Shown here: one piece after another, positions 4,110 through 28,290 of the stretch
Position numbering within the stretch: position 1 is the first letter of the stretch
How the letters are laid out: every line of letters starts with the position of its first letter
Assembly (NCBI RefSeq): GCF_030694325.1
Contig: NZ_JAUXYO010000053.1
Location: forward strand, 2,806 to 66,805
Reading direction: 5' to 3'
DNA length: 64,000 bases
Source: Bosea sp. (in: a-proteobacteria)
GTDB lineage: Bacteria > Pseudomonadota > Alphaproteobacteria > Rhizobiales > Beijerinckiaceae
Notes under the pieces: generated by a model
What the model saw: only the letters and a program-made list of their open reading frames with translations
Databases searched by the model: none
Told to the model about the DNA's origin: nothing
Program-made: the position numbers and the translations under genes

Positions 4110-4316
4110 ATGCAGACCCCCTTGCGGGATATCGTCGCCGTCCAGGCGCGGACATGGTCGGGCATCGAGCAGCCCAATGAGGCGGCCGGCATCATGGCCG
4201 ATGCGCTGGCCGCGACCATCGCCGGATTCGAGGCCCTGCGCGGGCAGCTCGCCTTCGAGGACGAGCCCTCCAGTTTCGAGGCCGCGCTCCAGGCGACGAA
4301 GGAGCCGCAGCCATGA
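4110..4316 (+). CDS. Small amidase partner protein S1 (68 aa, GatC/AtzG-like by context)
   Basis: RBS GGAGAGGAGAG precedes the ATG at 4110. The stop overlaps the amidase start (ATGA). C-terminal ...FEDEPSSFEA motif resembles the other four small partners. Confidence 0.65.
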   Translation: MQTPLRDIVAVQARTWSGIEQPNEAAGIMADALAATIAGFEALRGQLAFEDEPSSFEAALQATKEPQP

Positions 4317-5746
4317 ACGCCGCCGCGAAAAGCTCGCTCCTGCATCTCTCGCTGACCGACGCCGCCGATGCGCTGAAGGACGGCTCCGTCACGGCCCTGG
4401 AGCTCACCACCGTCGCGCTCGAGGCCTTCACCCGCGTCGACAAGGCGATCAATTCGGCGATCTGGCTGGAGGGCGCGGCCGCGCTCGAAGCCGCCGAGGC
4501 GCTCGACAAGAAGCGCAAATCCGGCGCGGCGCTCGGCCCGCTCCACGGGCTGCCGCTGGCCCATAAGGACATGTACTACAAGGCCGGCAAGCTCTCGACC
4601 TGCGGCTCGGCCATTCGCAAGGATTTCCGCCCGACCTACACCGCCACCGTCATGGAGCGGCTGGAGGAGGCCGGCTCGGTGACGCTCGGCGGCCTGAACA
4701 TGGCCGAGTTCGCGCAGAACCCGACGGGCCACAACCAGCATTACGGCCATTGCCGCAATCCCTGGCACACCGACTACTGCACCGGCGGCTCCTCCTCCGG
4801 CTCGGGCGCGGCGGTGGCGGCGCGGCTGGTCTATGGCGCGCTCGGCTCCGACACCGGCGGCTCGATCCGGCTTCCGGCCGCGATCTGCGGCGTCACCGGC
4901 ATCAAGGCGACGCAGACCCGCGTCTCGCGCCACGGCGTCATGCCACTCTCCTTCTCGGCCGACAATGTCGGTCCGCTGACGCAGACCGCCCGCGATGCGG
5001 CCCGCTTCCTCGGCGTGATCGCAGGCCATGATCCCAAGGACCCGACCTCGTCCGCCGAGCCGGTGCCGGACTACGAGGCGGCGCTGACCGGCGACATCCG
5101 CGGCATGCGTATCGGCGTCCCCACCAACTACTTCTTCGACGGCATCGACCCCGAGGTCCAGGCCGCCTTCGACGCCGTGGTCGCCGTGCTGCAGGCCCGC
5201 GGCGCCGTCATCGTCCCGGTGACGATCCCGCATATGGACGCGGTGGCGACCTATGGCGGCATCGTCTCGCGCGTCGAGGGCGGCACGATCCATGCCCAGT
5301 GGATGCGCGAGCGCCCGCAGGACTATGCCGTGCATCTGAGCGGCCGGCTCTATCCGTCGCAGGGCATTCCCGGCACCTATTATCTCGAGGCGCTGGCCCG
5401 GCGCGGGGCGATCCTGAAGGCGGTGGCAGCGGCGGTGTTCGGCGTCTGCGACGCCTTCATCACGCCGACGCTGCGCATGAAGGTGCCGACGCTGCTGGCG
5501 ACCGACATCGATGCCGGCACGCCGGGCGCGATCGAGACCTTCCAGGACGTTTCGATCAACACGCGGCCGATCAACTATCTCGGCCTGCCCTCGGTCAGCG
5601 TGCCCTGCGGACTGGATTCCAACGGCCTGCCGATCGGCTTCCAGATCCAGGGCCGCCCCTTCGCCGAGGCGCGTGTGCTCAACATCGCCGACGCCTATCA
5701 GCGCGACACGGACTGGCACCGCCGCCTGCCGCCCAACGTCTCCTGA
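4313..5746 (+). CDS. Amidase-signature family amidase A1 (GatA/AtzE-like)
   Basis: 477 aa with AS motifs GLPLAHKD (Lys), GGSSSGSGAAVA and GSDTGGSIRLPA (Ser nucleophile). Confidence 0.9.
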   Translation: MNAAAKSSLLHLSLTDAADALKDGSVTALELTTVALEAFTRVDKAINSAIWLEGAAALEAAEALDKKRKSGAALGPLHGLPLAHKDMYYKAGKLSTCGSAIRKDFRPTYTATVMERLEEAGSVTLGGLNMAEFAQNPTGHNQHYGHCRNPWHTDYCTGGSSSGSGAAVAARLVYGALGSDTGGSIRLPAAICGVTGIKATQTRVSRHGVMPLSFSADNVGPLTQTARDAARFLGVIAGHDPKDPTSSAEPVPDYEAALTGDIRGMRIGVPTNYFFDGIDPEVQAAFDAVVAVLQARGAVIVPVTIPHMDAVATYGGIVSRVEGGTIHAQWMRERPQDYAVHLSGRLYPSQGIPGTYYLEALARRGAILKAVAAAVFGVCDAFITPTLRMKVPTLLATDIDAGTPGAIETFQDVSINTRPINYLGLPSVSVPCGLDSNGLPIGFQIQGRPFAEARVLNIADAYQRDTDWHRRLPPNVS

Positions 5747-5791
5747 GATGGCGCAAGGATCTGTCGCCGACCCGGCGGCGGCAGATCACTC

Positions 5792-6571
5792 TCAGCGGAT
5801 CGAGGGCCGCCGCTGTCCACCATCGACATGGATGTCGGCGGCATTGATCCCCGCTGCGCGCGGCGAGACCACGAAGGCGATCGCGTCGGCGATCTCCTGG
5901 ACGGTGCTCAGCCGCTGCGCGGGAAAATCCTCCGCCTCGAACTTGGCGAAATCCTCCGGGCGCTCCGCCCGGATCCGCTCCCAGCCGCCGCCGGGGAAGA
6001 GCGTCGAGCCCGGCGACACCGCGTTGACGCGGATGCCGTGGGGCCCTAGCTCCCAGGCGAGCGAGCGCGCGGCATGGATCAGCCCGGCCTTGGCCGCGGC
6101 ATATTGCGCGCCGCGCGCGGCCGGAGCGCGCCCCGAGATCGAGGCGACGAAGACGGCGTTGCCGATCTCGCTGCGGGCGAGCGCCGGCGTCGCCTCGCGC
6201 AGTGCCGCGATCGCATGGCCGACATTGAAGCGGAAGGTCTCCTCCCAGTCGGCGTCGCTGGCGCTGACCAGCTCGCGCTCGCCGAAGCTGCCGCCGGCAT
6301 TGGCGATCAGGATGTCGAGACCGCCATAGGTCGCCACGGTCTCCGCCACCGCCCGCGCCGATTCGGCGGGGCTGCGGAAATCCGCCTGGATGGTCCGCAC
6401 CTCGCCGCCGACCGCCCTGATCTCGGCTGCGGTTGCGGCGAGCGTGTCCGCCCCGCGCGCGGCGATGGCGAGGCGGGCGCCCTCGCCGGCGAGCAGCAAT
6501 GCGGTGGCCTTGCCGATGCCGCGGCTGCCGCCGGTGATCAGCGCGATCCGTCCCTTCAGACCCAGATCCAT
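5792..6571 (-). CDS. SDR-family oxidoreductase
   Basis: 259 aa with TGGSRGIG cofactor motif and YAAAK (YxxxK) catalytic motif. Confidence 0.85.
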   Translation of the reverse strand: MDLGLKGRIALITGGSRGIGKATALLLAGEGARLAIAARGADTLAATAAEIRAVGGEVRTIQADFRSPAESARAVAETVATYGGLDILIANAGGSFGERELVSASDADWEETFRFNVGHAIAALREATPALARSEIGNAVFVASISGRAPAARGAQYAAAKAGLIHAARSLAWELGPHGIRVNAVSPGSTLFPGGGWERIRAERPEDFAKFEAEDFPAQRLSTVQEIADAIAFVVSPRAAGINAADIHVDGGQRRPSIR

Positions 6572-6572
6572 C

Positions 6573-10129: not shown

Positions 10130-10130
10130 G

Positions 10131-10718: not shown

Positions 10719-11426
10719 ATGCACACCATCGCGATCCCGGATTACGTTCTCCAGCGCGTCGTCGAGCGGCGCGGCAAGGTCCGTCTGTTCAAGACGCTCG
10801 ATCCGGCGCGCACGGCGCTGATCGTGGTCGATCTCCAGAACGGCTTCATGGCGCCGGGCCAGCCGGCCGAGATTCCCTATGCGCGCGAGATCGTGCCCAA
10901 CGTCAACCGGATCGGGCAGGCGCTGAGGGCCGCCGGCGGCCTCGTCGTCTACATCCAGAACACGATCACCGAAGAAACGCAGGCGCAGTGGTGCGTCTGG
11001 TTCGACAACTTCACCAAGGGCGAGTTCAAGCAGCGCATGGTCGCCGCCTTCGCGCGCGGTAGCTTCGGCCATGCGATCTATCCGGAGCTGGAAATCCTCC
11101 CAGGCGACTGGACGGTCGAGAAGCAGCGCTTCGGTGCCTTCGTCGAGGGCTCGTCGACGCTCCATGCGCAATTGCAGGAGCAGGGCATCGACACGCTCAT
11201 CATCGTCGGCACCGCCACGAATGTCTGCTGCGAGTCGACCGCGCGCGACGCGATGATGATGAACTACAAGGTCGTCTTCGTCTCCGACGCCAATGCCTGC
11301 CGCACGGACGAGGAGCACAACGCGACGCTCGGCAACATCCTGGCACTCTTCGGCGACGTCCAGTCGACCGACGAGGTTATCGCCGCGATCGGCGCCGGCG
11401 CAGCCGTCCTGCAGGCCGCGGAATAG
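10719..11426 (+). CDS. Isochorismatase-family cysteine hydrolase I1
   Basis: 235 aa with ALIVVDLQNGF (Asp) and GTATNVCCESTARDA (Cys nucleophile). Confidence 0.85.
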   Translation: MHTIAIPDYVLQRVVERRGKVRLFKTLDPARTALIVVDLQNGFMAPGQPAEIPYAREIVPNVNRIGQALRAAGGLVVYIQNTITEETQAQWCVWFDNFTKGEFKQRMVAAFARGSFGHAIYPELEILPGDWTVEKQRFGAFVEGSSTLHAQLQEQGIDTLIIVGTATNVCCESTARDAMMMNYKVVFVSDANACRTDEEHNATLGNILALFGDVQSTDEVIAAIGAGAAVLQAAE

Positions 11427-11458
11427 GCGGCGCCGCCGGCCGTGGCGCGGTACGAGGG

Positions 11459-11472
11459 GCACAATATTGTGC
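11459..11472. promoter_or_regulatory. Perfect 14-bp palindrome GCACAATATTGTGC
   Basis: Lies in the 364-nt gap upstream of the binding-protein gene. A second element, ATTG-tgtg-CAAT, is at 11536..11547. Confidence 0.3.
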
Positions 11473-11789
11473 AGCGCAGCAGATCGGGGCCTGCGCAATC
11501 ACCATATCGCCGCCTCGGCCGGCGAGCGTGGCATAATTGTGTGCAATACGCAGCGGGCACCACGCTGATGCTCCACCGCCGGCATGCGGCCATTGCCCCT
11601 CTTTCATCCAAAAACACTGTCGCCATGGCGCAATCTGGACCGACGGGATCGACCGTCATCATTTCCGCTGCCGGGCACCCAGCAAGACCCGATCAGGATT
11701 GGACACAATCGAGCCGGCTTGGCACGGCCTTTGCAAAAATCCCGGACGCCGCCGCACACGACCTCACTTGCATCCCGGAGGGAGCCCGC

Positions 11790-13406
11790 ATGCCTCACCA
11801 ATGTCAGATGTTTCGGAAAAGCGCCGCGCGCCTCGCGGCCGGTTTGTCGTTTGCGATCGTAGCGGCCTTCACGGCTGCCGCGCCGGCCCAGGCCCAGACG
11901 ACGCTGCGCGTCGCGATGACCGCCGGCGATATTCCGGATGTGACGGGGCAGCCTGATCAGGGCTTCGAGGGCTACCGCTTCGTCGGCTACACCCTCTATG
12001 ACTCCCTCATTCTCTGGGATCTCTCCCGCTCCGACGTCGAGGCCTCGCTGACGCCGGGCCTCGCCACGAAATGGGAGATCGATCCGAAGGACAGCAAGCG
12101 CTGGATCTTCACCCTGCGCAAGGATGTGAAGTTCCATGACGGGTCGGACTTCAACGCCGACGTCGTGCTCTGGAACATCGCGCGCCTGACCGACGAGAAG
12201 GTCCCGCATTTCAACGCCAAGCAGTTCGCGGCGATGCGCACCCGCACCGTCAACATCGACCGCGCCGAGAAGATCGACGACCACAGCGTCGCGATCATCA
12301 CCAAGGAGCCGGATTCGCTGTTCTACATCCAGATGAGCTTCTGGATGATGATCTCGAAGGCCCAATTCGAGAAGGCGGGCTCCTACGAGAAATACGCCCA
12401 GATGCCCTCGGGCACCGGGCCCTACCGTTTCGCCGGGATCGTTCCGCGCGAGCGCCTGGAACTGACCCGCAACGAGACCTATTGGAACCCCAAGCGCATT
12501 CCCAAGCATGACCGGCTGGTGCTGCAGCCGATGCCGGAGGCGACGACGCGCGCCGCCGCGCTCCTCTCCGGCCAGGTCGACTTCATCGAGGCGCCCTCTC
12601 CGGACACGATCGCGAGGCTGAAATCCTCGGGGATGCAGGTCATCACCCTGCCTTACCCCCATAACTGGCACTACCAGTTCAACTTCGTCGACGGCCCCTT
12701 CAAGGACAAGCGCGTGCGCCAGGCGGCGAACTACGCGATGAACCGCGGCGAAATGGTCGAGATGCTCAACGGCCTCGCCCAGGAAGGCTATGGCACCGTG
12801 CCGCCGAGCTCGCCCTATTTCGGCAAGCCGGTCCTCTACAAGCTCGACCAGAAGAAGGCGACCGCGCTGCTCAAGGAGGCCAAGTGCTTCCCCTGCGAGG
12901 TCACGCTCGCGATCTCGACCTCCGGCTCGGGCCAGATGCAGCCGCTGCCGATGAACGAGCTGGTCAAGTCGCAGCTCGAGGCGGTGGGCTTCAAGGTCAA
13001 GCTCGAGGTGATGGACTGGAACGCGCTGCTCGACGTCACCTTCAAGGGCCGCGAAAAGTTCCCCGCCTATCACGCCGTCAATGTCAGCCGCGCCACGCAG
13101 GATCCCTTCTCCGGCATCTTCCGCTTCGCCATGCGCAAGCAGTGGGCGCCGGCCGGCGGCAACTGGGGCCATTACGAGAACCCCGAGATCGAGAAGCTGA
13201 TCACGGAGATCTACAACACCTTCGAGCAGACGAAGCGCGACGCGATGATCACCCGGGTCCACGAGATCATGAACGAGGACGCCGCCATGCTCTTCGTCAC
13301 CCATGACCTGAATCCGCGGGCGCTCTCGCCCAAGGTGAAGGGCTTCGTCCAGGCCCAGAGCTGGTTCCAGGACCTGACGCCGATCACCGTCGGCACCACG
13401 AACTGA
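11790..13406 (+). CDS. ABC transporter substrate-binding protein SBP1 (family 5, peptide/nickel type)
   Basis: RBS GGAGGGA and ATG at 11790. Signal peptide ends ...AAPAQAQT. Length and pattern are Dpp/Opp-like. Confidence 0.85.
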   Translation: MPHQCQMFRKSAARLAAGLSFAIVAAFTAAAPAQAQTTLRVAMTAGDIPDVTGQPDQGFEGYRFVGYTLYDSLILWDLSRSDVEASLTPGLATKWEIDPKDSKRWIFTLRKDVKFHDGSDFNADVVLWNIARLTDEKVPHFNAKQFAAMRTRTVNIDRAEKIDDHSVAIITKEPDSLFYIQMSFWMMISKAQFEKAGSYEKYAQMPSGTGPYRFAGIVPRERLELTRNETYWNPKRIPKHDRLVLQPMPEATTRAAALLSGQVDFIEAPSPDTIARLKSSGMQVITLPYPHNWHYQFNFVDGPFKDKRVRQAANYAMNRGEMVEMLNGLAQEGYGTVPPSSPYFGKPVLYKLDQKKATALLKEAKCFPCEVTLAISTSGSGQMQPLPMNELVKSQLEAVGFKVKLEVMDWNALLDVTFKGREKFPAYHAVNVSRATQDPFSGIFRFAMRKQWAPAGGNWGHYENPEIEKLITEIYNTFEQTKRDAMITRVHEIMNEDAAMLFVTHDLNPRALSPKVKGFVQAQSWFQDLTPITVGTTN

Positions 13407-13499
13407 CGCGGCCCCGCCTTCGGGATGCCGCCCGTCGCGGCCGCATCCCCCTCAAAGCCCAAAGCGATCCAGGACCCGAGCCGACCGAAGGAGACCTCC

Positions 13500-14456
13500 A
13501 TGTGGCACTATATCGCCCGTCGCATCGTCTACGCGATCCCGATCGCCATCGGCGTTACGGTCTTCTGCTTCGCGCTGGTCTTCCTGGCGCCGGGCAACCC
13601 CGTCCAGATGCTGCTCCCGGCCGATGCGAGCCAGGAGGTCGTCGATCTCATCATGAAGACCTACGGCTTCGACCGGCCACTGCCCGTCCAGTACTGGACC
13701 TGGCTGACACGGGCCGTCGTCGGCGATCTCGGGGTCTCGATCCAGTCCAACCGGCCGGTGATCGACGAGGTATTGCGGGCGCTGGGCAACACCGTCTTCC
13801 TGTCGCTCGGCGCGGTGGCGCTCGCGTTCACCATCGCCTTCGTACTGGGCACGTTGGCGGCCTATTACCGGGGCAGTGCGACCGACCGCAGCGTCACCGC
13901 CCTGTCGATCGTCGGCGTCTCGATCCCGAACTACTGGCTCGGCATCGTGCTGGTCATCATCTTCGCTGTCGAGCTGAACTGGCTGCCGGCGACCGGCATG
14001 GGCCCGCGCGGCTCGGAGACGTTCAACCTCTTCGAATGGTCCCATTTCAAGCATGTGATCCTGCCGATCGTCACGCTCTGCATGGTGCCGGTCGGGATGA
14101 TCACCCGCACCACGCGCTCGGCCGTGTCCGAGGTGCTGGGCAACGACTTCGTCAACACGCTGCGCGCCAAGGGCCTCGGCGAACTCGCAGTGATCCGGCA
14201 CGCGCTCAAGAACGCCATGCCCCAGATCCTGGCCGTGATGGGGCTGCAGTTCGGCTACCTGATGGGCGGCTCGATCCTGGTCGAGACGATCTTCAACTGG
14301 CCGGGCACGGGCTTCCTGCTGAACAAGGCGATCCTGACGCGCGACATCCCGGTCCTGCAGGGCACGATCCTGGTCCTCGCCCTCGTCTTCGTCTTCACCA
14401 ACCTCGTCGTCGACCTGTTCCAGACCGCGGTCGACCCGCGCATCAAGCGTTCCTGA
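13500..14456 (+). CDS. ABC transporter permease (DppB-like)
   Basis: Starts MWHYIARRIVYAIPI after RBS GGAGA. About 6 TM segments. Confidence 0.85.
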   Translation: MWHYIARRIVYAIPIAIGVTVFCFALVFLAPGNPVQMLLPADASQEVVDLIMKTYGFDRPLPVQYWTWLTRAVVGDLGVSIQSNRPVIDEVLRALGNTVFLSLGAVALAFTIAFVLGTLAAYYRGSATDRSVTALSIVGVSIPNYWLGIVLVIIFAVELNWLPATGMGPRGSETFNLFEWSHFKHVILPIVTLCMVPVGMITRTTRSAVSEVLGNDFVNTLRAKGLGELAVIRHALKNAMPQILAVMGLQFGYLMGGSILVETIFNWPGTGFLLNKAILTRDIPVLQGTILVLALVFVFTNLVVDLFQTAVDPRIKRS

Positions 14457-14466
14457 GGAGTCGGCC

Positions 14467-15369
14467 ATGACCGATTTCACCACGGCGACACGCCTCCTCG
14501 CGGCGGAAGAAGAGGCCCCGGCCACCAAGGTCCGCGGCTACTGGCAGAATGTCGGTTACCGCCTGCGCTACGACTACGTCACGCTCGCCTTCGCGCTGGT
14601 CATCGTCCTGATCGTCGCGATGGCGGTGTTCGCGCCCTGGATCGCCCCGAAAGATCCCTACAAGACCTCGATGGCGTTCCGGCTGCGCCCGGTCGGCTTC
14701 CGCGACTTCCATCTCGGCACCGACGAACTCGGCCGCGACATCCTCTCCCGCCTGATCCATGGCGGGCGCATGTCGCTGCTGATGGGCGTGGTGCCGGTGG
14801 TGTTCGCGACGCTGATCGGCGGCTTCCTCGGCGTGCTCGCCGGCTTCATCGGCGGCAAGCTGAACATGGCGATCATGAGGACCATGGACGTCTTCTACGC
14901 CTTCCCCTCGATCCTGCTGGCGGTCGCGATTTCCGGCGCCATGGGCGGCGGCATGGCCAATGGCATGGTCGCCCTGACGCTGGTCTTCATCCCGCCGCTC
15001 TGCCGCATCGCCGAGACGGCGACCACCCAGGTCCGCGGGCTCGATTTCGTCGAGGCGGCGCGGGCCTCCGGCGGCTCGACCGGCTCGATCATCGCCACGC
15101 ATATCCTCGGCAACGTGCTCGGGCCGATCTTCATCTACGCCTCGGGCCTGGTCTCGGTCTCGATCCTGATCGCTTCCGGCCTCTCCTTCCTCGGCCTCGG
15201 CGTCGAGCCGCCGCATCCCGACTGGGGCCTGATGCTCTCAACCCTGCGCCAGTCGATCTACGTCAACCCGATCGTCTGCGCGCTGCCGGGTGTGATGATC
15301 TTCGTCACCTCACTCGCCTTCAACATGGTCAGCGACGGGCTGCGCCAGGCGATGGACGTCAGACTGTGA
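14467..15369 (+). CDS. ABC transporter permease (DppC-like)
   Basis: 300 aa polytopic protein, adjacent to the first permease. Confidence 0.85.
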   Translation: MTDFTTATRLLAAEEEAPATKVRGYWQNVGYRLRYDYVTLAFALVIVLIVAMAVFAPWIAPKDPYKTSMAFRLRPVGFRDFHLGTDELGRDILSRLIHGGRMSLLMGVVPVVFATLIGGFLGVLAGFIGGKLNMAIMRTMDVFYAFPSILLAVAISGAMGGGMANGMVALTLVFIPPLCRIAETATTQVRGLDFVEAARASGGSTGSIIATHILGNVLGPIFIYASGLVSVSILIASGLSFLGLGVEPPHPDWGLMLSTLRQSIYVNPIVCALPGVMIFVTSLAFNMVSDGLRQAMDVRL

Positions 15370-16568: not shown

Positions 16569-16578
16569 GGATGATCCG

Positions 16579-17613
16579 ATGACGACAGCCACCGCACCAT
16601 CCACGGTTCCCGGCCCCGTCGCTCTCGCCGCGGTAAGGCCGCTGGTCGAGGTCGAGGATCTCTCGGTCAAATTCGTCAGCCGGGAAGCGACCGTCGCCGC
16701 CGTGAACGGCGTCTCCTTCTCGATCCAGCCGGGCGAGGTGCTCTGCATCATCGGTGAGTCCGGCTCCGGCAAATCCGTGACGATGCGCGCTCTGATGCGG
16801 CTCCTGCCCAAGGGCCGGGCCAGGATCGGCGGCAAGATGCGCGTCGGCGAGCACGACATCATGGCGCTCAGCGACAAGGAGCTTACGCAGATCCGCGGCT
16901 CGACCATCTCGATGATCTTCCAAGAGCCGATGACGGCGCTCGACCCCGTCTACACGATCGGCCACCAGATCGCCGAGACGGTGGTCAAGCACGAGGGCTG
17001 CTCCTACGCCGACGGGCTGAAGCGCGGGCTGGAGCTGCTCGAATTCGTCAAGGTGCCTTCGCCGGAGCGGCGCCTGAAGGCCTATCCGCACGAGCTCTCC
17101 GGCGGCCTGCGCCAGCGCGCCATGATCGCCATGGCGCTGTCCTGCCGGCCGCAGCTCCTTCTGGCCGACGAGCCGACGACCGCGCTCGACGCCACCGTGC
17201 AGATCCAGGTGCTGGTGCTGCTGCGCAAGCTCCAGCGCGACATGGGCATGAGCGTGATCTTCGTCACCCATGATCTCGGCGTCGCCGCCCAGATCGCCGA
17301 CCGGGTCGCGGTGATGTATGCCGGCCGCGTCGTCGAATCCGGCCCGGTGCGCGACGTGCTGATGAACCCGCAGCACCCCTATACCCGCGGCATGCTCGCC
17401 TCCTCCGTCCATGGCAGCGCGCGCGGCGTCGACATCGAGGCGATCCCCGGCTCGCCGCCCGACATGCGCCGCCTGCCGCCGGGCTGCGCCTTCGCGCCGC
17501 GCTGCAAATTCGCCGACGAGGGCTGCCGTGCGGCGAGCCCGCCGGAAACCGTGCCCGCGCCCGACCGCACCGTCTGCTGCTTCAAGGTCGGCTCGCCCGC
17601 CTTGTCCTCCTGA
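16579..17613 (+). CDS. ABC transporter ATP-binding protein (second ATPase)
   Basis: Walker A GESGSGKSV, signature LSGGLRQRA, C-terminal CAFAPRCKF motif. ATG at 16579 follows the previous stop by 10 nt. Confidence 0.85.
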   Translation: MTTATAPSTVPGPVALAAVRPLVEVEDLSVKFVSREATVAAVNGVSFSIQPGEVLCIIGESGSGKSVTMRALMRLLPKGRARIGGKMRVGEHDIMALSDKELTQIRGSTISMIFQEPMTALDPVYTIGHQIAETVVKHEGCSYADGLKRGLELLEFVKVPSPERRLKAYPHELSGGLRQRAMIAMALSCRPQLLLADEPTTALDATVQIQVLVLLRKLQRDMGMSVIFVTHDLGVAAQIADRVAVMYAGRVVESGPVRDVLMNPQHPYTRGMLASSVHGSARGVDIEAIPGSPPDMRRLPPGCAFAPRCKFADEGCRAASPPETVPAPDRTVCCFKVGSPALSS

Positions 17614-17636
17614 AACCCAGCACGAAAGAGCCCGCC

Positions 17637-18347
17637 ATGCACAAGGTCGAGATTCCCGCCTATGTCACCGAGCATGTCGTCGCCCGTCGCGGCGTCGAGC
17701 ATGTCTATGCCGATCTCGATCCCGCCCGCACGGCGCTGATCGTCGTTGATCTCCAGAACGGCTTCATGATGCCGGGCGTCGCCCATGCCCTCTGCGACAC
17801 CGCCCGCGAGATCGTCCCCAACGTCAACCTGATCGCCGACGCCGTGCGCCGCACCGGCGGCAAGGTGTTCTGGATCAAGAACACCCATGACGAGGGCTGC
17901 CTGACCTCCTGGTCGCATTTCCATCAGGATCTGACGCGGCCGGAGCGGCGCGCCGCGCGGGTCGAATCCATGTCGGAAGGCAAGCTCGGCCACGAACTCT
18001 GGGCCGATCTCGAGGTCGCTCCGGAGGACGAAATCGTCCAGAAGACGCGCTTCAGCGCCTTCATCCAGGGCTCGTCGGATCTTGAGGCGAGGCTGCGCGC
18101 GCAGGGCTACGATACCCTGATTATCACCGGCACCGTCACCAATGTCTGCTGCGAATCGACCGCCCGCGACGCCATGATGCTGAACTTCAGGACGATCATG
18201 GTGACCGACGGCAATGCCGCCAATTCCGATGCCGAGCACAACGCCTCGCTGATCGCCTTCTACCTCACCTTCGGCGACATCATGGACACGCAGATGCTGA
18301 TCGGCTGTCTGGAAAAGAACGCCCGCTTCCGCGAGGCGGCCGAATAA
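17637..18347 (+). CDS. Isochorismatase-family cysteine hydrolase I2 (paralog of I1)
   Basis: 236 aa with ALIVVDLQNGF and GTVTNVCCESTARDA. By eye roughly half the residues are identical to I1. Confidence 0.85.
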   Translation: MHKVEIPAYVTEHVVARRGVEHVYADLDPARTALIVVDLQNGFMMPGVAHALCDTAREIVPNVNLIADAVRRTGGKVFWIKNTHDEGCLTSWSHFHQDLTRPERRAARVESMSEGKLGHELWADLEVAPEDEIVQKTRFSAFIQGSSDLEARLRAQGYDTLIITGTVTNVCCESTARDAMMLNFRTIMVTDGNAANSDAEHNASLIAFYLTFGDIMDTQMLIGCLEKNARFREAAE

Positions 18348-18380
18348 CCCGGCGCGCGCGCCCGACACACTGAGAGAGAC

Positions 18381-19382
18381 ATGCCTGTTCTGCCCAAGGT
18401 CGCGGTCATTGGGACCGGCGGCACGATCTGTTCCATCGGCACCGGCCCCTTCGACATCCTCGACTATGGCGCCAATGAAACGATGCTCCATGCCGACGCG
18501 TTGGTGGCGATGTTTCCCGACGTCGCCCAGCTCGCCGAGATCATCCCCGTTCCATTCAAGGCAGTGCCGAGCCCCAACATCTTCTTCGAGGACTGGAAGG
18601 CGATCGTCCTGACCTGCGACCGGCTGGTCGCGGAGCATCCCGACCTCGCCGGCATCGTCATCCTGCACGGAACAGCCTCGCTGGAGGAGACGGCCTATTT
18701 CCTCAGCCTGACGGTGAAGGTGTCAGTGCCGGTCGTGGTCGTCGGCTCGCAGCGCCCGGCCAGCGCGCTCTCGACCGATGCGGGGATGAACCTCGCCAAT
18801 GCGCTCCGCACCGCGGCCTGCCCGCAGGCGCGCGGTCTCGGCGTTCTTGTCCTGCTGAACGACGAGATCCACGCCGCCCGCGACGTGACCAAGACCTCGA
18901 CCTTCAGGCTGCAGACCTTCCGCTCGCCCGATTTCGGCGTGCTCGGTCATGCCGATGGCGATGCCGTGGTGTTCTACCGGAAGCCGCTCCGGAAGGCGGG
19001 GCCCGACACGGAGTTCGACATCCGCAGCCTCGACGCCCTGCCGCGCGTCGACATCGTGCTGGCCTATACCGGCTCGGACGGCACGGCGGCGCGCGCCTTC
19101 GTTGCGGCCGGCGCCAAGGGCATCATCTCCGCCGGTTTCGCACCGGGCTTCGCCGGCCCTGCCGATTTCGAGGTGCTAAAGGAGGCCGTGGCAGCTGGCA
19201 TCGTGGTGATGCAGTCGACCCGCGCCGGCTCGGGTCGCACTTTCAAGGGCAAGCGCCTGCGGGATGCCGGCTTCCTGATCACCGACAATCTCACGCCGCA
19301 GAAAGCGCGGCTGCTGCTCGCGCTGGCGCTGACGGTCAGCGCCGATCCGTCCGAGATCGAACGCATCTTCCTGACCTATTGA
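18381..19382 (+). CDS. L-asparaginase/glutaminase family protein
   Basis: N-terminal VIGTGGTI (catalytic Thr motif) and HGTASLEETAYFL. Confidence 0.8.
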   Translation: MPVLPKVAVIGTGGTICSIGTGPFDILDYGANETMLHADALVAMFPDVAQLAEIIPVPFKAVPSPNIFFEDWKAIVLTCDRLVAEHPDLAGIVILHGTASLEETAYFLSLTVKVSVPVVVVGSQRPASALSTDAGMNLANALRTAACPQARGLGVLVLLNDEIHAARDVTKTSTFRLQTFRSPDFGVLGHADGDAVVFYRKPLRKAGPDTEFDIRSLDALPRVDIVLAYTGSDGTAARAFVAAGAKGIISAGFAPGFAGPADFEVLKEAVAAGIVVMQSTRAGSGRTFKGKRLRDAGFLITDNLTPQKARLLLALALTVSADPSEIERIFLTY

Positions 19383-19384
19383 CG

Positions 19385-20299
19385 ATGACCGTGATCCTGA
19401 ACGCGCCGGCCGGGGAGGAGCGCGACGCGCGACGCGGCGTCGTGATGATGCTGATCGGGCTGGCGCTGTTCTCGATCCTGAACGGCGTCGTCAAGGCGCT
19501 GGCGGAGAGTTTCGCGGTCAACCAGATCGTCTTCTTCCGCAACGGCTTCGCGCTCGTCACCCTGTTGCTGATGGCCCGCGGGCTCGGAGGCCTCGCCGCT
19601 CTGAAGGTCCATAACCGCTCCGGCATGGCGCTACAGGCGGTGCAGTTCACGGCCGTGCTGCTCTTCATCTTCGTGGCCTATCGCCACATGCCGCTCGCCG
19701 ACGCGACCGCGATCTCCTTCCTGCAGCCGGTCCTGGTGCTGCTGCTCTCGGCACCGCTGCTGGGCGAGAAGGTGACGCGGCTGGGCTGGCTCGCCCTGCT
19801 GCTCGGGCTCGGCGGCGTGCTGCTGATGGTCAAGCCGAGCGGCGGCGGCAGCCTGTTCGGGCTGACCATGTCGGTCATCGGCACGGTCTTCAGCGCGCTC
19901 TCGCTGATCCAGCAGCGCAGCCTCTCGCGCAACGAGACCTCGCTGTCGATCGCCTTCTGGACGCTGGCCGGCTCGGCGCTGCTCGTCCTGCCGAGCCTGC
20001 CCTTCAATTGGGTCCAGCCGACACCCGCGCAATGGGCTCTGCTGATCGGCAACGGCCTGGCCTCGGGCGCCTGCCAGTACCTTACCACGCGGGCGCTCTT
20101 TCATGCGCCCGTGGCGACGATCGCGCCCCTCTCCTACACCAAGATGCTCTGGGCCCTGATCGTCGGCTTCGTCTGGTTCGGCGACGTGCCGACCCTGCTC
20201 GTTCTCGCCGGCTCGGCGATCGTCATTGCCGCGAGCGCGCTGGTCTATCTGGCACCCAAGCCGGTGCCCGCCCCGGTTCGGCTCGAAGAAGCGCCATGA
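19385..20299 (+). CDS. EamA/DMT-family transporter
   Basis: About 10 TM segments. First ATG is at 19385; a TTG at 19379 overlaps the asparaginase stop. Confidence 0.75.
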   Translation: MTVILNAPAGEERDARRGVVMMLIGLALFSILNGVVKALAESFAVNQIVFFRNGFALVTLLLMARGLGGLAALKVHNRSGMALQAVQFTAVLLFIFVAYRHMPLADATAISFLQPVLVLLLSAPLLGEKVTRLGWLALLLGLGGVLLMVKPSGGGSLFGLTMSVIGTVFSALSLIQQRSLSRNETSLSIAFWTLAGSALLVLPSLPFNWVQPTPAQWALLIGNGLASGACQYLTTRALFHAPVATIAPLSYTKMLWALIVGFVWFGDVPTLLVLAGSAIVIAASALVYLAPKPVPAPVRLEEAP

Positions 20300-21450
20300 C
20301 CCGTCTGACATCACCCGTCGCGGCCTGGATCCTCGATGTCCGGGCCGGCTTGGCCGCCATGCAGCCGGCCCGCTTCCCCTACCCCCGCTTCGCCCTGGCC
20401 CTCGCGCTTGGCGTCGCAGGCGGCCTGCTGTTCCAACGCCTGTCGCTGCCGCTGCCCTGGATGATGGGCCCGATGGTATTCTGCACGCTGGCGGCGTCGC
20501 TGCGTGCACCGGTCGCCGCGCCGCCGGTCATCCGCCCGCCCATGACCATGGTGATCGGCGTCATGCTCGGCGCGGCCTTCAGCCCCGATCTCGTCGCCCG
20601 CATTCCGCAATGGTGGCCGGCGACGCTCGGGCTCGTCGCCTTCATCGCGCTCTGCGGCGGCTCGGTGGTCTGGTATTTCCGTACAGTGGGGGGCTATGAC
20701 CGCGCCACCGCCTATTTCGCCGGCATGCCGGGCGGCCTGGTCGAGATGATCAGCATTGGCGAGGAGCGCGGCGGCGACGGCCAGGTCATTGCACTGGTCC
20801 ATTCGGTCCGCATCCTGCTCATCGTCATGACGCTGCCCTTCGCCATCCAGTGGCTCGAGGGCGTTTCGCTGAACCGCATCGCGGGCGCCGTCTCCGTCTT
20901 CTCCACGCCGGCGACGGCGCAGCTCTGGCTGCTCGGCTGCGGGATGGCCGGCTGCCTCCTCGGCCATTGGCTGAACCTGCCCGCCAAATACCTGCTCGGG
21001 CCGATGCTGTTCAGCGCCGCCATCCATCTTGCGGGCTGGAGCGACTTCAAGCCGCCCTTCGAGATCGTCAACGCCGCCCAGTTGATCCTCGGCGTCGTGA
21101 TCGGCTGCCGCTTCGCCGGCACGGCGCCGCGCATCGTCGGGCGCATCATCCTGCTCTCGGTGGGGTCGACCGCGATCCTGCTGTTCTGGACCGGCGCCTG
21201 TGCCGCCCTCGTCTCCTGGCTCACCGGCTTCCGCGCGATCACGCTGATCCTGGCCTACTCCCCGGGCGGGCTCGCCGAGATGAGCCTGATCGCGCTCGCC
21301 GTCCATGCGGAGGTCGCCTTCGTCGCCGCGCACCACATCATTCGCATCTTCGTCGTGATGGTGGCCGCCGCGCCCGTCTATGCGGTGATCGCCCGCCTGG
21401 AGCGTATCCGACCCGGAACGGGCGCCGCGCGCGGGATGCCGGCCGAGTGA
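20296..21450 (+). CDS. AbrB-family membrane protein (AbrB duplication type)
   Basis: 384 aa polytopic protein. Segments LPWMMGPMV and GMPGGLVEM / SPGGLAEMS are typical of this family. ATGA overlap with the upstream gene. Confidence 0.65.
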   Translation: MTRLTSPVAAWILDVRAGLAAMQPARFPYPRFALALALGVAGGLLFQRLSLPLPWMMGPMVFCTLAASLRAPVAAPPVIRPPMTMVIGVMLGAAFSPDLVARIPQWWPATLGLVAFIALCGGSVVWYFRTVGGYDRATAYFAGMPGGLVEMISIGEERGGDGQVIALVHSVRILLIVMTLPFAIQWLEGVSLNRIAGAVSVFSTPATAQLWLLGCGMAGCLLGHWLNLPAKYLLGPMLFSAAIHLAGWSDFKPPFEIVNAAQLILGVVIGCRFAGTAPRIVGRIILLSVGSTAILLFWTGACAALVSWLTGFRAITLILAYSPGGLAEMSLIALAVHAEVAFVAAHHIIRIFVVMVAAAPVYAVIARLERIRPGTGAARGMPAE

Positions 21451-21460
21451 CGCTCGATTG

Positions 21461-21472
21461 GTTGCATACAAT
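21461..21472. promoter_or_regulatory. Candidate operator, copy 5, embedded in a 9-bp-arm inverted repeat
   Basis: GTTGCATACAAT lies inside GCTCGATTG-gttgcata-CAATCGAGC (21452..21477), 190 nt upstream of the GntR gene. Confidence 0.4.
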
Positions 21473-21661
21473 CGAGCTCAGCAGCGCTCATCATGCACAC
21501 TTTCTCGTCAACAGAGCCACATTAGCGTTGACGCAGCGACATTCAGCTCCTAACTGCCTGCCGACTGTACACGATCGAGACGATTCTGCCGCACGCATGA
21601 TCATCCTCGATGCGCGCGCAGAGCTGCCTTGACATCCGCCTTACCGACAGGACGACACATC

Positions 21662-22363
21662 ATGGCGACACGCGGCCTCTCGGTCACCAACAAGCTCAGG
21701 GAAGCCGTGCTCGGCGGCGACTATGCCGGCGGCACGCGCCTCAACGAGGTCGATCTCGCCGACGCGCTCGCTGTGTCGCGCACGCCGATCCGGGCCGCGC
21801 TGTCGACCCTCGCAGCCGAGGGCCTGCTCGAATACCGCCCCAACAGCGGCTACGCGGTGAAGAGTTTCGCCGCCAAGGACATCGAGGGCATCTATGTCGT
21901 GCGGGCCAATCTCGAGGGTCTCTGCGCGCGGCTGGTGGCGCAGCAGGGCCTGTCGGACGTTCACCGCGGCCTCCTGCACAAGGTGCTGGCGGAGAGCGAA
22001 GAGCTGCAGAATGTTGAGAGCTGGACCGACGAGGTTTCAGATCTCTGGCGCGATCTCAACGACCGCTTCCACAACACGTTGATCGAGGCCTCCGGCAACT
22101 CGCATCTTGCGATGATGCTGCGCAAATCCCGCGCCATTCCGCTGCTCAACCAGCTCAAGTTCCGCTGGTTCGACATGGGCACTTTGGCCCGTGCCCATGA
22201 TGACCACAGCCAGATCTTCGCCGCCATCACGGGTGGGCAGGTCGTGCGGGCCGAGAGCCTCGCCGAAGAGCATGTCTATCGCTCCGGCCAGCGCATCATC
22301 GAGCATTGGCGCAAGATGGATACGCGCAAGCCGGCCGTCGCCACCAAGGCCCGCGCCGCCTGA
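21662..22363 (+). CDS. GntR-family transcriptional regulator (FadR/FCD-like)
   Basis: N-terminal wHTH ...LNEVDLADALAVSRTPIRAALSTLAAEGLL... followed by a helical C-terminal domain. Confidence 0.85.
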   Translation: MATRGLSVTNKLREAVLGGDYAGGTRLNEVDLADALAVSRTPIRAALSTLAAEGLLEYRPNSGYAVKSFAAKDIEGIYVVRANLEGLCARLVAQQGLSDVHRGLLHKVLAESEELQNVESWTDEVSDLWRDLNDRFHNTLIEASGNSHLAMMLRKSRAIPLLNQLKFRWFDMGTLARAHDDHSQIFAAITGGQVVRAESLAEEHVYRSGQRIIEHWRKMDTRKPAVATKARAA

Positions 22364-24091: not shown

Positions 24092-24970
24092 CTAAGCCGG
24101 CAGCCGGCGCTGCTTGCGATGCTCGTCCTGGAAGATGAAAAGGGTGGCGCTCATCACGATCGCGGCGCCAAACAACGCCCAGCGATCGGGAATCTCCTGG
24201 TAGGCGAGCCAGGCGAACAGCGCGATGAAGGGCAGGCGGGCGAAGTCGAACGGCATGACCGTCGAGGCCGGCGCGTTGCGCAGCGCCAGGAACAGCGTCA
24301 GCCGGCCGACGAACATCGCCACCGCCATCACCACCAGAAACAGCATCATGTCGAAGGACGGCGTCCGCCAGTAGAGCACGGCGGGGATCAGGCCGGTGAC
24401 CACCGGGATCAGGGTGGTCACGGCGACGATGCGGCTGGTGCTCTCGATCTGCGTGAGACGCTTCGAGATCAGGTACATCGAGGCCATCGACAGGGTCGAG
24501 ATCATCAGCGCGATCGTGCCGGCGTCGAGTGCGACGAAGCCCGGCCGCGAGATCACCATCACGCCGACGAAGCCGACCATCACCGCGACCCAGCGGCTGC
24601 GCGAGACGCTCTCGCCGAGCAGGACGCCGGCCAGCGCCGTCACGATGATCGGTGCCGCGAAGGTCATCGCGGTGGCCTTGGCCAGCGGCACATGGGCGAG
24701 CGCATAGAACCAGGTCAGGTTCGAGACGCAGCCGACCGCAGTCATGATGCCGTAGAGCCTTCGCTTCTCGCGCCGGTCCGGCATTCCCGCCCCGCCCCGC
24801 AACTGCGGCCAGACGAAGACGAGCATGATCAGGTTGGTCAGGAAGCTGATCTGGAACGGGTGCAGTTCGGTCGCGATCTGCCGGACCAGCGAATTGCCAC
24901 CCGCCAGGAAGGCCGTGCTCAGAATCATCCAGAGAATGCCGGCCTGAACGGTGTTACGGGCCTCGGCCAT
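24092..24970 (-). CDS. EamA/DMT-family transporter
   Basis: 292 aa with about 10 TM segments. Confidence 0.75.
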   Translation of the reverse strand: MAEARNTVQAGILWMILSTAFLAGGNSLVRQIATELHPFQISFLTNLIMLVFVWPQLRGGAGMPDRREKRRLYGIMTAVGCVSNLTWFYALAHVPLAKATAMTFAAPIIVTALAGVLLGESVSRSRWVAVMVGFVGVMVISRPGFVALDAGTIALMISTLSMASMYLISKRLTQIESTSRIVAVTTLIPVVTGLIPAVLYWRTPSFDMMLFLVVMAVAMFVGRLTLFLALRNAPASTVMPFDFARLPFIALFAWLAYQEIPDRWALFGAAIVMSATLFIFQDEHRKQRRLPA

Positions 24971-26445: not shown

Positions 26446-26446
26446 C

Positions 26447-26635
26447 TCAGCGGCCCATTGGCGCGAAGATATGAGCCGGTTCGGCATCATAGCCGCGGGG
26501 CTTGCGCACGCGCTCCCGCATCGCCTGCAGCAGCATAAAGGCGCTGCGCATCTCCTCCATGTGCTCGGGCTTTACGCGGATACCCGCCCGGTCGAGCAGC
26601 ACCTGGAAGGCTTCGGTCGAGATGGTCTCGCTCAT
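26447..26635 (-). CDS. Small amidase partner protein S4 (62 aa)
   Basis: RBS GGAGA. ...RGYDAEPAHIFAP motif. Tightly coupled to amidase A4. Confidence 0.7.
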   Translation of the reverse strand: MSETISTEAFQVLLDRAGIRVKPEHMEEMRSAFMLLQAMRERVRKPRGYDAEPAHIFAPMGR

Positions 26636-26668
26636 GATCGTCTCCGCGAAAGGGGGAAATGCACCGGG

Positions 26669-28102
26669 TCACTCGGCGGCGAGCGCCTGCTGCGCCCATT
26701 GGGCCGGGCGCAGGTCGCGGTAGCTGGTCGCCTTCTCGAAAGCGCTGCCGACCCGCAGCACGAGATCGTCCTGGAAGGGCCGCCCGACGATCTGCATGTT
26801 CAGGGGCAGCCCCGCCGTTGAGAAACCCGAACAGACCGATAGGGCCGGCGAGCCGGTGAGGTTGAAGACGCGGGTGAAGGAGGGCCGCGAGCGCGACATC
26901 ATGTTGCCGAGGTCGCCGAGCTTCGGCGCCACGCCCGGCATGGTCGGACAGATCAGCACGTCGACGCTTTCGAACACGCTCGCGATCTCGGCGATCAGCC
27001 GGCCGCGCTCGCGCAGCGCGTTGACATAGTCGCAGGCGCGGATGAAGGCGCCCATCATGATGCGCTGGCGGGCAAGCTCGCCATAAAGCTCAGGCGTCGC
27101 CATCAGCGTCTCCTCATGGAAGGCGAAGGCCTCCGAGCGCGAGATCAGCGCTGCCGCGTCGCCATAGGCCGAGAGCGGCGACAGCGTGACGTCCGTCACC
27201 GCGCAGCCCAGCTCCCGGAAGGTCACCAGCGCCGCCTCGATGCCGGCCTTGATCTCGGGATCGGTCTCGGCGTCGCTCTCGAAGAAGTGCCTGACCACGC
27301 CGATGCGCAGCCCCTTCACGTCCTTCTGCCGCGAACCGGCGAAATCGGGCTTCGCGACGTCGGCGCTGCCGGGGTCGAGCGGGTCGTGCTGCGCCAGCAC
27401 CTCCATCATCAGCGCGCAGTCCTCGCTGGTCCAGCACATCGGCCCGCCATGGTCGAGGCTGAAGGAGAGCGGCAGGATGCCCCGGCGGCTGACCAGCCCA
27501 TACGTCGGTTTCAGCCCGGAAATCCCGCACCAGGCCGCCGGCCCGCGGATCGAGCCGCCGGTGTCGGTGCCCATCGAGCCCATGGCGAGCCCGGCCGCGA
27601 TCGCCGCGCCAGACCCCGAGGAAGACCCCGCCGGATCATGGGCGAGGTTCCAGGGGTTCTTCGCCGGCGGCCAGGGCAAGTCGAAGGAGGTGCCGCCGAT
27701 CGCGAACTCCCAGGTCGAGAGCTTGCCGAGCAGGATGGTGCCGGCCTCGGCCAGCAGGCGCGTCGTCGTCGCGTCCTCTTCCGGCACATGGTCCTTGTAG
27801 AGGGCGGAATGGCCGGTCGTGGGAATGCCCTTCGTGTTGTAGATATCCTTCAGCCCGATCGGGACGCCATGCAGCGGCCCTTTGTAGTCGCCCCTCATGA
27901 TCTCGCCCTCGGCCTTGCGCGCGGCCGCCATCGCCTGCTCGGGCAACACGCGGATGAAGGCGTTGAGCTGCCCGTCGAAGGCCTCAATCCGGGAGAGATA
28001 GGACGCGGTCAGTTCGACCGGGGAGAGCTTCTTGGCCTTCAGCAGCGGAGCGGCCTCGGCGATGGTCAGATCGTGCAGCGCGGTCATGGCGGCCCCCTTC
28101 AC
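26669..28102 (-). CDS. Amidase-signature family amidase A5
   Basis: GLKD, AGSSSGSGAAIAAG and GTDTGGSIRGPA motifs. The GTG at 28102 overlaps the S5 stop (GTGA); an alternative ATG is at 28087. Confidence 0.9.
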   Translation of the reverse strand: MKGAAMTALHDLTIAEAAPLLKAKKLSPVELTASYLSRIEAFDGQLNAFIRVLPEQAMAAARKAEGEIMRGDYKGPLHGVPIGLKDIYNTKGIPTTGHSALYKDHVPEEDATTTRLLAEAGTILLGKLSTWEFAIGGTSFDLPWPPAKNPWNLAHDPAGSSSGSGAAIAAGLAMGSMGTDTGGSIRGPAAWCGISGLKPTYGLVSRRGILPLSFSLDHGGPMCWTSEDCALMMEVLAQHDPLDPGSADVAKPDFAGSRQKDVKGLRIGVVRHFFESDAETDPEIKAGIEAALVTFRELGCAVTDVTLSPLSAYGDAAALISRSEAFAFHEETLMATPELYGELARQRIMMGAFIRACDYVNALRERGRLIAEIASVFESVDVLICPTMPGVAPKLGDLGNMMSRSRPSFTRVFNLTGSPALSVCSGFSTAGLPLNMQIVGRPFQDDLVLRVGSAFEKATSYRDLRPAQWAQQALAAE

Positions 28103-28290
28103 TTGGTCCAGAGCCGGAGCGCGTGAATGGGCTCCTGCAGGTAGCTGCGCTTGACCCGGATGGTGCGGGCGGCGGCTTCGAGATCGGCGACGGAGCCCTT
28201 GAGCGACTCCAGCGTTTCCGGGCCGACCTTCAGGCCGTATTCGGCAAGCTTGGCCTCGATCGGGATCGGCGTGGCGGGCGTGTCGGTCAT
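28099..28290 (-). CDS. Small amidase partner protein S5 (63 aa)
   Basis: Internal ATG of ORF 28099..28500 with RBS GGAGG. ...RSYLQEPIHAL motif. Confidence 0.65.
   Translation of the reverse strand: MTDTPATPIPIEAKLAEYGLKVGPETLESLKGSVADLEAAARTIRVKRSYLQEPIHALRLWTK

Follow-up and report, generated by a model that had tools for sequence, protein, structure and literature searches.

We analysed a stretch of 64,000 nucleotides (nt) from a Bosea genome (contig NZ_JAUXYO010000053.1, positions 2,806 to 66,805 of the forward strand; "the window" below), in which five amidase genes are each preceded, in contact or near contact, by a small open reading frame (ORF) of 62 to 69 codons. These small ORFs, S1-S5, are real, conserved protein genes. 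We consider it quite likely that they encode small, non-catalytic, helical partner subunits that are produced together with the abutting amidases (A1-A5) and bind to them. For a sixth amidase, A6, no such small ORF is present. The nearest relatives of the proteins encoded in the window come from Bosea.

The principle of a tiny, GatC-derived partner for a GatA-like amidase is already known from GatC and AtzG. AtzG and AtzE together form the 1-carboxybiuret hydrolase of Pseudomonas sp. ADP (Protein Data Bank (PDB) entry 6C62). AtzG has no catalytic role and assembles into an obligate heterotetramer with AtzE, which is insoluble without it; the complex is thought to derive from GatCA, and the same authors hold that AtzG and GatC are evolutionarily related (PMC6219798). 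What appears to be new here is a large family of such partners, along with relatives of S1, that scans with Pfam and NCBIfam models do not recognise. It also appears to be new that such partners are attached to amidases that are neither AtzE nor GatA, and that the pairs form conserved tandem arrays. A search of the literature available to us found no description of the S family.

Five small genes and their amidases

The five small ORFs are as follows. The E-values are from leave-one-out tests with hidden Markov models (HMMs), in which all relatives of at least 40% identity were excluded, and GC3 is the G+C content at third codon positions.

4110-4316, plus strand: S1, 68 amino acids; Shine-Dalgarno sequence GGAGAGGAGAG; GC3 0.88; treated as a divergent S1-type subfamily
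10340-10131, minus strand: S2, 69 amino acids; GC3 0.83; E = 7.6e-11
24028-23825, minus strand: S3, 67 amino acids; E = 1.7e-14
26635-26447, minus strand: S4, 62 amino acids; E = 2e-17
28290-28099, minus strand: S5, 63 amino acids; Shine-Dalgarno sequence GGAGG; E = 6.4e-6

The original prediction had placed small ORFs at these five starts, and all of them were present at exactly these coordinates. It had also claimed that each small ORF overlaps the start of its amidase or ends within 1 nt of it. At four junctions the amidase indeed begins 4 nt inside the small ORF (an ATGA overlap, for S1/A1 and S3/A3) or after a 1-nt spacer (S2/A2 and S4/A4). A4 starts at the ATG at 26445, and its orthologs show the same junction; a second in-frame ATG, at 26490, is not used in the orthologs. 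The S5/A5 junction can be read in two ways, either as a GTGA overlap (GTG at 28102) or with A5 starting at the ATG at 28087, after a spacer of 11 nt and with AAGGGGG ahead of it at a distance of 5 nt. In Rhizobiales bacterium PAR1, the ortholog of A5 starts with an ATG 7 nt past the small ORF's stop. As for the claim that each small ORF has its own Shine-Dalgarno sequence, purine-rich motifs of this kind do precede all five, and that of S2 is weak. Finally, S2-S5 had been said to share two motifs. S2 departs from both of them (it has AEVTVPAD and EPSNIF), yet it is homologous to the others by the leave-one-out test. For S1, a layout shared with the others is less well supported: a profile built from the relatives of S2-S5, without S1, gave no match to S1 at E < 10.

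Small ORFs can arise by chance, and the window has a G+C content of about 68%. We searched its 840 six-frame ORFs with an HMM of the family and found S1-S5 and no others (E-values from 1e-23 to 1e-32); the next-best ORF was at E = 0.7. Because exactly five S-like ORFs were found, the pattern is not the chance ORF noise of GC-rich DNA. Furthermore, S1-S5 have GC3 values of 0.82-0.89 in the proposed frame, the same as nearby genes. When S1, S3, and S4 are compared to their orthologs from other Bosea, the differences are mostly at third codon positions, and synonymous changes are at least as numerous as nonsynonymous ones. For S1 and two Bosea orthologs, the differences at the three codon positions are 7, 3, and 20 in one comparison and 3, 6, and 28 in the other, so that third positions account for 20 of 30 and 28 of 37 differences; the corresponding ratios of synonymous to nonsynonymous codon changes are 18:9 and 21:8. 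No alignment with these orthologs is possible for the 120 nt upstream of S1.

The family is large. A word-indexed search with a profile of the five S sequences matched 1101 proteins, and among the 120 matches listed, we found no name other than "hypothetical protein" and no precomputed Pfam domain. An exhaustive HMMER search of 1.84 billion cluster representatives with a 37-sequence profile matched 678 clusters (at 50% identity) when the limit was E <= 1e-3, and 75 clusters when it was E <= 1e-10. Nearly all of the HMMER matches listed are 55-120 amino acids long. The conserved features of the family are a glycine in (R)AG(L/F/I), a basic stretch R-x-(P)R, and an E-P motif (AEPAH-F). S3 has homologs that are 69-93% identical in Bosea, other Hyphomicrobiales, and Ramlibacter, all of them hypothetical proteins without Pfam domains. 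Two longer proteins, P0167 (450 amino acids) and P0170 (2431 amino acids), were rejected as relatives: only the N-terminal third of the S profile matched, in 8 and 12 repeated stretches respectively. P0167, the one of the two whose sequence was inspected, consists of near-identical tandem repeats with 'ELARAGLRSNPKKVAEVFL' and looks like translated repetitive DNA.

The HMM search of the same 840 ORFs found exactly six amidases:

4313-5746, plus strand: A1, 477 amino acids; HKD, GGSSSG, and GSDTGGSIR; the most divergent of the six paralogs
10129-8699, minus strand: A2, 476 amino acids; LKD, GGSSSG, and GSDTGGSIR
23828-22419, minus strand: A3, 469 amino acids; ATGA overlap with S3
26445-25039, minus strand: A4, 468 amino acids; LKD, GGSSSG, and GSDTGASIR
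28102 or 28087 to 26669, minus strand: A5, 477 amino acids from the GTG at 28102 or 472 from the ATG at 28087
29753-28329, minus strand: A6, 474 amino acids; without a small ORF of its own

Judging from their sequences, A1-A6 are amidase-signature enzymes (of the PF01425 type) with intact catalytic motifs. As had been predicted for these proteins of about 470 amino acids, the motifs of the Ser-cisSer-Lys triad are present in all six: the lysine in (L/H)KD, the cis-serine motif GGSSSG or GSSSG, and the nucleophilic serine in (G/T)(S/T)DTG(G/A)SIR. A2-A6 are 44-53% identical to each other, and A1 is 34-38% identical to them.

None of the six can be given a family name. They are 32-36% identical to AtzE (33% for A1), and in NCBIfam they score best against the models of the AtzE family, GatA, and PRK06169 (265-326 bits; cut-offs 426-506). 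For the two AtzE models, NF006631 and TIGR02715, the scores are 265-320 bits and the cut-offs are 461 and 426. The best model for A1 is the AtzE family (320 bits; cut-off 461), while A2 scores 317 bits against the AtzE family and 314 bits against GatA, and A5 scores 326 bits against PRK06169 and 324 bits against GatA, all of them under the cut-offs. A4 reaches 286 bits against GatA (cut-off 481). Every NCBIfam score of A3 is under the cut-off; among PDB sequences, A3 scores 274 bits against GatA (4wj3_A) and 213 bits against AtzE (6c62_A). Because these scores are so far under the cut-offs, we place A1-A6 in the GatA/AtzE clade without a family name; they are neither AtzE nor GatA.

The pairing of a small ORF with an amidase extends well beyond the window. 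We examined 29 external loci in genomes and metagenomes, from Bosea, other Hyphomicrobiales, Acetobacteraceae, Rhodopila, uncultured Alphaproteobacteria, and one Ramlibacter. In all 42 cases (37 S-like ORFs in these loci and the 5 in the window), an amidase ORF lies directly 3' on the same strand, and the partner amidases at the other loci carry PF01425. The gap between the two genes ranges from -4 to +7 nt except at two loci, L008 (-14 nt) and L024, where the amidase is frameshifted. At L024 (L024:3001-4591, from an uncultured alphaproteobacterial metagenome-assembled genome), the amidase behind an intact S-like ORF is broken across three frames, either because it is a pseudogene or because of an assembly error.

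The flanking genes of the external pairs vary widely (DOPA dioxygenase and arginase, a Rieske oxygenase and RraA, an HMG-CoA-lyase-like gene, and others), so the conserved unit is a two-gene module. Similarly, S1-A1 moves as a unit, with neighbours that vary from one Bosea to another. Within the pairs, distances between S proteins and distances between amidases are highly correlated (Mantel r = 0.92 across 35 distinct pairs, with 0 of 2000 permutations as high), which implies that the S protein and the amidase of each pair duplicated and diverged together.

The five pairs had been described as an unusual paralog expansion. All five are indeed present, but the expansion is not particular to this genome. 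The order A6-S5-A5-S4-A4 is kept in PAR1 (L025:1-4575) at 68-83% identity, with an ortholog of S5 (72% identical) at the equivalent position, and several Bosea loci keep the region from the A5 end through S4-A4, about 1 kb of other sequence, and S3-A3. The expansion is thus inherited.

Remote similarity of the small proteins to GatC and AtzG

The S family remotely resembles GatC and AtzG when profiles are compared with profiles. We aligned a profile of 148 S sequences to GatC and to a 16-sequence AtzG alignment with hhalign. The GatC alignment had P = 2e-4 (probability 47%) and covered 59 columns, from S positions 5-63 to GatC positions 3-62. The AtzG alignment had P = 6.5e-4 (probability 28%) and covered 54 columns, or nearly the whole of AtzG. 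Both alignments have the same register: RAG-L-x-L-x-PE of the S family is aligned with LARL-x-L-S-EE of GatC and with IG-L-P-L-D of AtzG, and towards the C terminus, AEPAH-F is aligned with VEP-x-x-H and with ELAEIY. These scores are well above those of controls. For GatC, the real score was 27.7, as compared to 9.2 +/- 1.6 for 100 column shuffles (maximum 14.0) and 13.5 for a reversed profile. For AtzG, the real score was 24.1, as compared to 10.1 +/- 2.2 for 100 column shuffles (maximum 18.3) and 10.6 for a reversed profile. In addition, PF13318 (AtzG-like, formerly DUF4089; gathering score 24 bits) was the commonest sub-threshold Pfam match in the S family, in 16 of 148 representatives, with a best E of 0.0041.

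The predicted structure of S3 points in the same direction, with fold matches that are not significant. The AlphaFold2 model of S3 (predicted local distance difference test (pLDDT) score 79.8) has a helix at residues 8-17, a turn, a long helix at residues 24-45, and a loop. The length of the S proteins and this helix-turn-long-helix-loop layout match the N-terminal, GatA-binding part of GatC. When we compared the S3 model to 350,542 PDB chains with Foldseek, the top three matches were GatC chains from Staphylococcus aureus (2df4_C, 2dqn_C, and 2f2a_C; TM score 0.54 over 50 columns), and other GatC chains (9a62_B, 3kfu_G, and 4wj3_C) stood lower in the list.

S1 stands apart. It is 100% identical to a protein from a metagenome-assembled genome of Bosea, and among the matches listed, its homologs come from Bosea only (88-100% identity). 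The motif of its subfamily is LRGQL(A/S)FEDEPxxFEAxL. Amidases that are 48-60% identical to A1 are encoded on plasmids of Bosea sp. F3-2, Agrobacterium rubi, and Azospirillum, and each of them has an upstream ORF that overlaps its start. These ORFs encode proteins of 68-76 amino acids that are annotated as "hypothetical protein", and the closer ones have LRGQLSF(E/D)(D/E)(E/Q)P-x-x-F(E/D)A in common. A four-sequence alignment of the S1 type matches the S family by hhalign (P = 4.3e-4 over 40 columns, in the same register), and the AlphaFold2 model of S1 (pLDDT 75) has the same helix layout as that of S3. We treat S1 as a second, more divergent subfamily that has the same gene arrangement and is paired with an A1-type amidase; its homology to the GatC/AtzG lineage is unproven.

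A number of results weigh against the proposed link to GatC and AtzG, or against the dependence of these amidases on a partner. None of S1-S5 matched Pfam GatC (PF02686), AtzG-like (PF13318), or any NCBIfam model at E <= 10, whereas a positive control, the authentic AtzG of plasmid pADP-1, matched PF13318 at 36.2 bits (E = 7.9e-9). An HMM built from six GatC sequences gave E >= 12 for every S ORF, and HMM searches of PDB sequences with S profiles (of 5 or 148 sequences) found neither GatC nor AtzG. The hhalign probabilities given above are low; GatC from P. aeruginosa alone, when aligned to the S profile, had P = 0.076; and a calmodulin decoy had P = 0.0043 over 26 columns. The Foldseek matches of the S3 model were non-significant, with E-values of at least 1 (E = 1 for 2df4_C), fragments of EF-hand proteins scored nearly as well, and AtzG (6c62 chain B) was absent from the 50 matches listed. 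By hhalign, the S1-type alignment matched neither AtzG (P = 0.14) nor GatC (P = 0.65), and the S1 model had zero Foldseek matches. Finally, no partner ORF for A6 was found ahead of it (the upstream gene is 99 nt away) or elsewhere in the window by the HMM search of the 840 ORFs, so at least one paralog may work alone. S5 starts 38 nt past the stop of A6; A6 may work alone or may borrow S5.

Matches of the S profiles to EF-hand or designed-helix proteins in PDB sequences were short (26-31 residues for EF-hands). The EF-hand/calmodulin-like segment is I-S-x-x-E-F-x-x-L-L-x-R-A-G-L-x-L-T-x-E-Q, at about residues 5-31 of S3. Because the S proteins do not have a calcium-binding loop, we rejected these matches as motif-level decoys.

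The original prediction that the small ORFs encode AtzG- or GatC-like subunits thus fared unevenly. It is supported by the coupling to the amidases, by the length and layout of the proteins, and by remote profile similarity. It is not supported by direct HMM comparison to the GatC and DUF4089/AtzG families or by significant Foldseek matches; moreover, S1 is separate, and the amidases score under the AtzE and GatA cut-offs.

These mixed results raise the alternative that the S proteins bind and stabilise the amidases but evolved independently, as a convergent helical clamp whose similarity to GatC and AtzG reflects a shared helix-turn-helix composition. Convergence would fit the negative outcome of all HMM-level tests against GatC and AtzG, the hhalign probabilities of under 50%, and the decoy that reaches P = 0.004. 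Also, as a calibration, AtzG and GatC are undetectable to each other by hhalign (P = 0.11), hence descent is not settled by sequence. On the other hand, the S family aligns at full length with both GatC and AtzG, in one register that includes the conserved E-P/A-x-x-(F/Y) loop, and with scores far above the shuffled and reversed controls. Furthermore, the amidases of the pairs are of the GatA/AtzE clade, AtzG-like is the most frequent weak match in Pfam, and GatC tops the fold matches. We consider convergence quite unlikely. Conversely, the profile and model comparisons make it moderately likely that S2-S5 are homologous to the GatC/AtzG lineage, and the S2-S5 family is probably a fast-evolving offshoot of it that was duplicated together with its amidase.

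A proposed partner role and its consequences

We propose that each S protein would be translated together with its amidase and would bind it as AtzG binds AtzE, wrapping around the amidase like the N-terminal two-thirds of GatC on GatA. The product would be a stable, soluble heteromer, probably alpha2-beta2, in which the amidase would contribute the Lys / cis-Ser / Ser triad and hydrolyse an amide, while the S protein would serve as a folding and solubility clamp. We infer the physical binding, the stoichiometry, and the dependence of the amidase on its S protein from the gene arrangement and from the parallel with the known complexes.

In structures of GatCAB, the C-terminal part of GatC contacts GatB. 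The S proteins do not have the C-terminal third of GatC (they are 62-69 amino acids long, as compared to about 95-100 for GatC), and there is no gatB among the genes annotated in the window. Both observations fit a purely hydrolytic enzyme that does without GatB.

If the S proteins do not act as proteins at all, then the small ORFs might be regulatory upstream ORFs that act by being translated (by coupling or attenuation). The stops and starts overlap or nearly touch in every pair, and the Shine-Dalgarno motifs of the amidases lie inside the S coding sequences, as such a mechanism would have it. However, the amino-acid sequence has been kept across 678 clusters (at 50% identity), in which G, R, and EP positions hardly vary; orthologs differ mostly by synonymous changes; and a helical fold is predicted with confidence (pLDDT 75-80). 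Leader peptides are not normally conserved as folded proteins of 60-70 residues, and we consider a regulatory role of this kind very improbable.

Equally improbable, in our view, is that the S proteins are inhibitors or immunity-type partners that hold the amidase back until it is required, as an immunity protein does for an amidase-signature toxin (compare Tsi8 for Tse8), or have a role that is unrelated to the amidases, such as EF-hand-like binding: a small gene beside an enzyme is a toxin-immunity layout too, and there are the weak EF-hand-like motif matches, but the locus is related to catabolism and transport, the annotated genes show no secretion-system or toxin context, the S gene is upstream and translationally coupled as in atzG-atzE, and the S proteins have no calcium-binding loop and match EF-hands over just 26-31 residues.

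Among known systems, AtzG resembles the partner subunits that we propose in its gene arrangement. AtzG is a non-catalytic protein of 68 amino acids whose gene lies directly upstream of that of a GatA-clade amidase of about 460 amino acids. An ORF of about 60-75 codons that lies directly upstream of an amidase gene and is coupled to it is found in 5 of 5 pairs in the window and 37 of 37 external pairs. S proteins and AtzG are also of the same length class, have the same helical layout, have no GatB-type partner, and show remote profile similarity in the register described above (P = 6.5e-4). There are several differences as well. S1-S5 fail PF13318, which authentic AtzG passes, and the S motif is AEPAH-I-F instead of ELAEIYRPAPFPA. 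The S-partner amidases share 32-36% identity with AtzE, and their scores of 265-320 bits lie under the AtzE-family cut-offs (426 and 461). Genes of AtzE-family enzymes often have an atzH/HpxZ gene behind them; none of A1-A6 does, and their neighbours are instead an SDR, EamA transporters, or the next S ORF. And unlike AtzG-AtzE, the S-amidase pairs occur in tandem arrays.

It is GatC that the S family matches best, both in profile-profile comparison (P = 2e-4) and by fold (2df4_C), and LARL-x-L-S-EE and VEP-x-x-H of GatC are the counterparts of RAG-L-x-L-x-PE and AEPAH of the S proteins (structures of GatC with GatA include 2DF4, 3H0L, and 4WJ3). The S-partner amidases score about 290-320 bits against the GatA model. 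In contrast to GatC and GatA, the S proteins have no match to Pfam GatC, the amidases are under the 481-bit GatA cut-off, and the context of the pairs is catabolic rather than tRNA metabolism.

GatF is described as an ortholog of GatC that is specific to fungi, within a GatAB enzyme that is conserved in other respects (PMC4027206). GatF, from the yeast mitochondrial GatFAB, illustrates that the small partner of a GatA-type enzyme can differ strongly between lineages. It is, however, a eukaryotic protein in a tRNA amidotransferase with GatB.

Our results suggest that such helper subunits are more frequent and more diverse than databases now indicate; the S family is missed by the Pfam and NCBIfam models that we used. 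If the S proteins are required subunits, then at least 678 clusters (at 50% identity) of "hypothetical" proteins, plus the S1-type relatives, would gain a function. The idea of AtzG/GatC as a "vestigial complex" would then widen from one s-triazine pathway to many catabolic amidases. It would also be advisable to co-express the upstream small ORF with such amidases for biocatalysis, bioremediation, or substrate discovery. The finding brings no new catalytic mechanism and names no substrate; its main use is in annotation and in the heterologous expression of amidases.

A much broader rule can be imagined, namely that most catabolic amidases in the GatA/AtzE clade obligatorily consist of two subunits, of which the small one evolves too fast for current family models; the hundreds of unannotated clusters of roughly 65-residue proteins in the S and S1-type families might then be a sign of it. 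We find this doubtful. Were it true, many "amidase" genes would be wrongly annotated as encoding single-subunit enzymes and wrongly expressed in laboratory work. Under such a rule, the small subunits of an array such as A6-S5-A5-S4-A4 might be shared between paralogs or might set which proteins pair (for example, S5 might serve A6), and shared small subunits might give mixed assemblies of several amidases.

Genomic context of the pairs

The neighbouring genes, as annotated with Pfam or NCBIfam, include:

8663-7557, minus strand: EamA transporter, downstream of S2-A2
7526-6573, minus strand: FmdA/AmdA-family amidase, downstream of S2-A2
6571-5792, minus strand: SDR, downstream of S2-A2
10719-22363, plus strand: context genes, comprising two isochorismatase-family hydrolases, a Dpp/Opp-type ABC transporter, a type II asparaginase, an EamA transporter, an AbrB-duplication membrane protein, and a GntR/FCD regulator
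24092-24970, minus strand: EamA transporter, between A4 and S3
29853-31547, minus strand: family-5 solute-binding protein (SBP_bac_5), at the head of the minus-strand array

From 31547 to 22419, the minus-strand order is solute-binding protein, A6, S5, A5, S4, A4, EamA transporter, S3, and A3, with gaps of at most 99 nt, and no terminator-like sites were found on this strand between 22 and 32 kb. From their annotated neighbours, the pairs sit in what looks like an island for the uptake and hydrolysis of nitrogen compounds, which contains ABC importers, isochorismatase-like hydrolases, an asparaginase, a formamidase-like enzyme, and EamA exporters. For the neighbouring genes, every specific NCBIfam model (RutB, BiuH, FmdA, GsiB, and others) scored far under its cut-off, so we name no substrate, in agreement with the earlier view that substrates cannot be read from the sequence.

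The trio of EamA transporter, FmdA/AmdA-family amidase, and SDR also adjoins an S-amidase pair in a contig from the betaproteobacterium Ramlibacter (L004:284-2980). This hints that the trio and the pair belong to a larger conserved or horizontally transferred module.

Upstream of S1-A1, positions 2000-4100 have a G+C content of 0.595, as compared to about 0.68 for the window. This stretch could be the boundary of a genomic island, and it contains:

3405-3481, minus strand: tRNA-Pro(CGG)
3685-3759, plus strand: tRNA-Gln(TTG)
2976-2632, minus strand: ORF of 114 amino acids, without an NCBIfam match

On its other side, the amidase island directly abuts a photosynthesis gene cluster, which lies in the right half of the window (31981-62219) and includes:

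31981-32505: TspO
33713-32514, minus strand: porphobilinogen deaminase
40066-36071, minus strand: BchH-type magnesium chelatase
40453-41946, plus strand, and 46650-44980, minus strand: two PpsR-like regulators (PAS and HTH_8)
44869-43463, minus strand: PucC
48036-49661: nitrogenase-like oxidoreductase subunit
51284-52393: NifH/BchL-like protein
61247-60207, minus strand: reaction-centre protein

Because of this cluster, the host looks like an aerobic anoxygenic phototroph.

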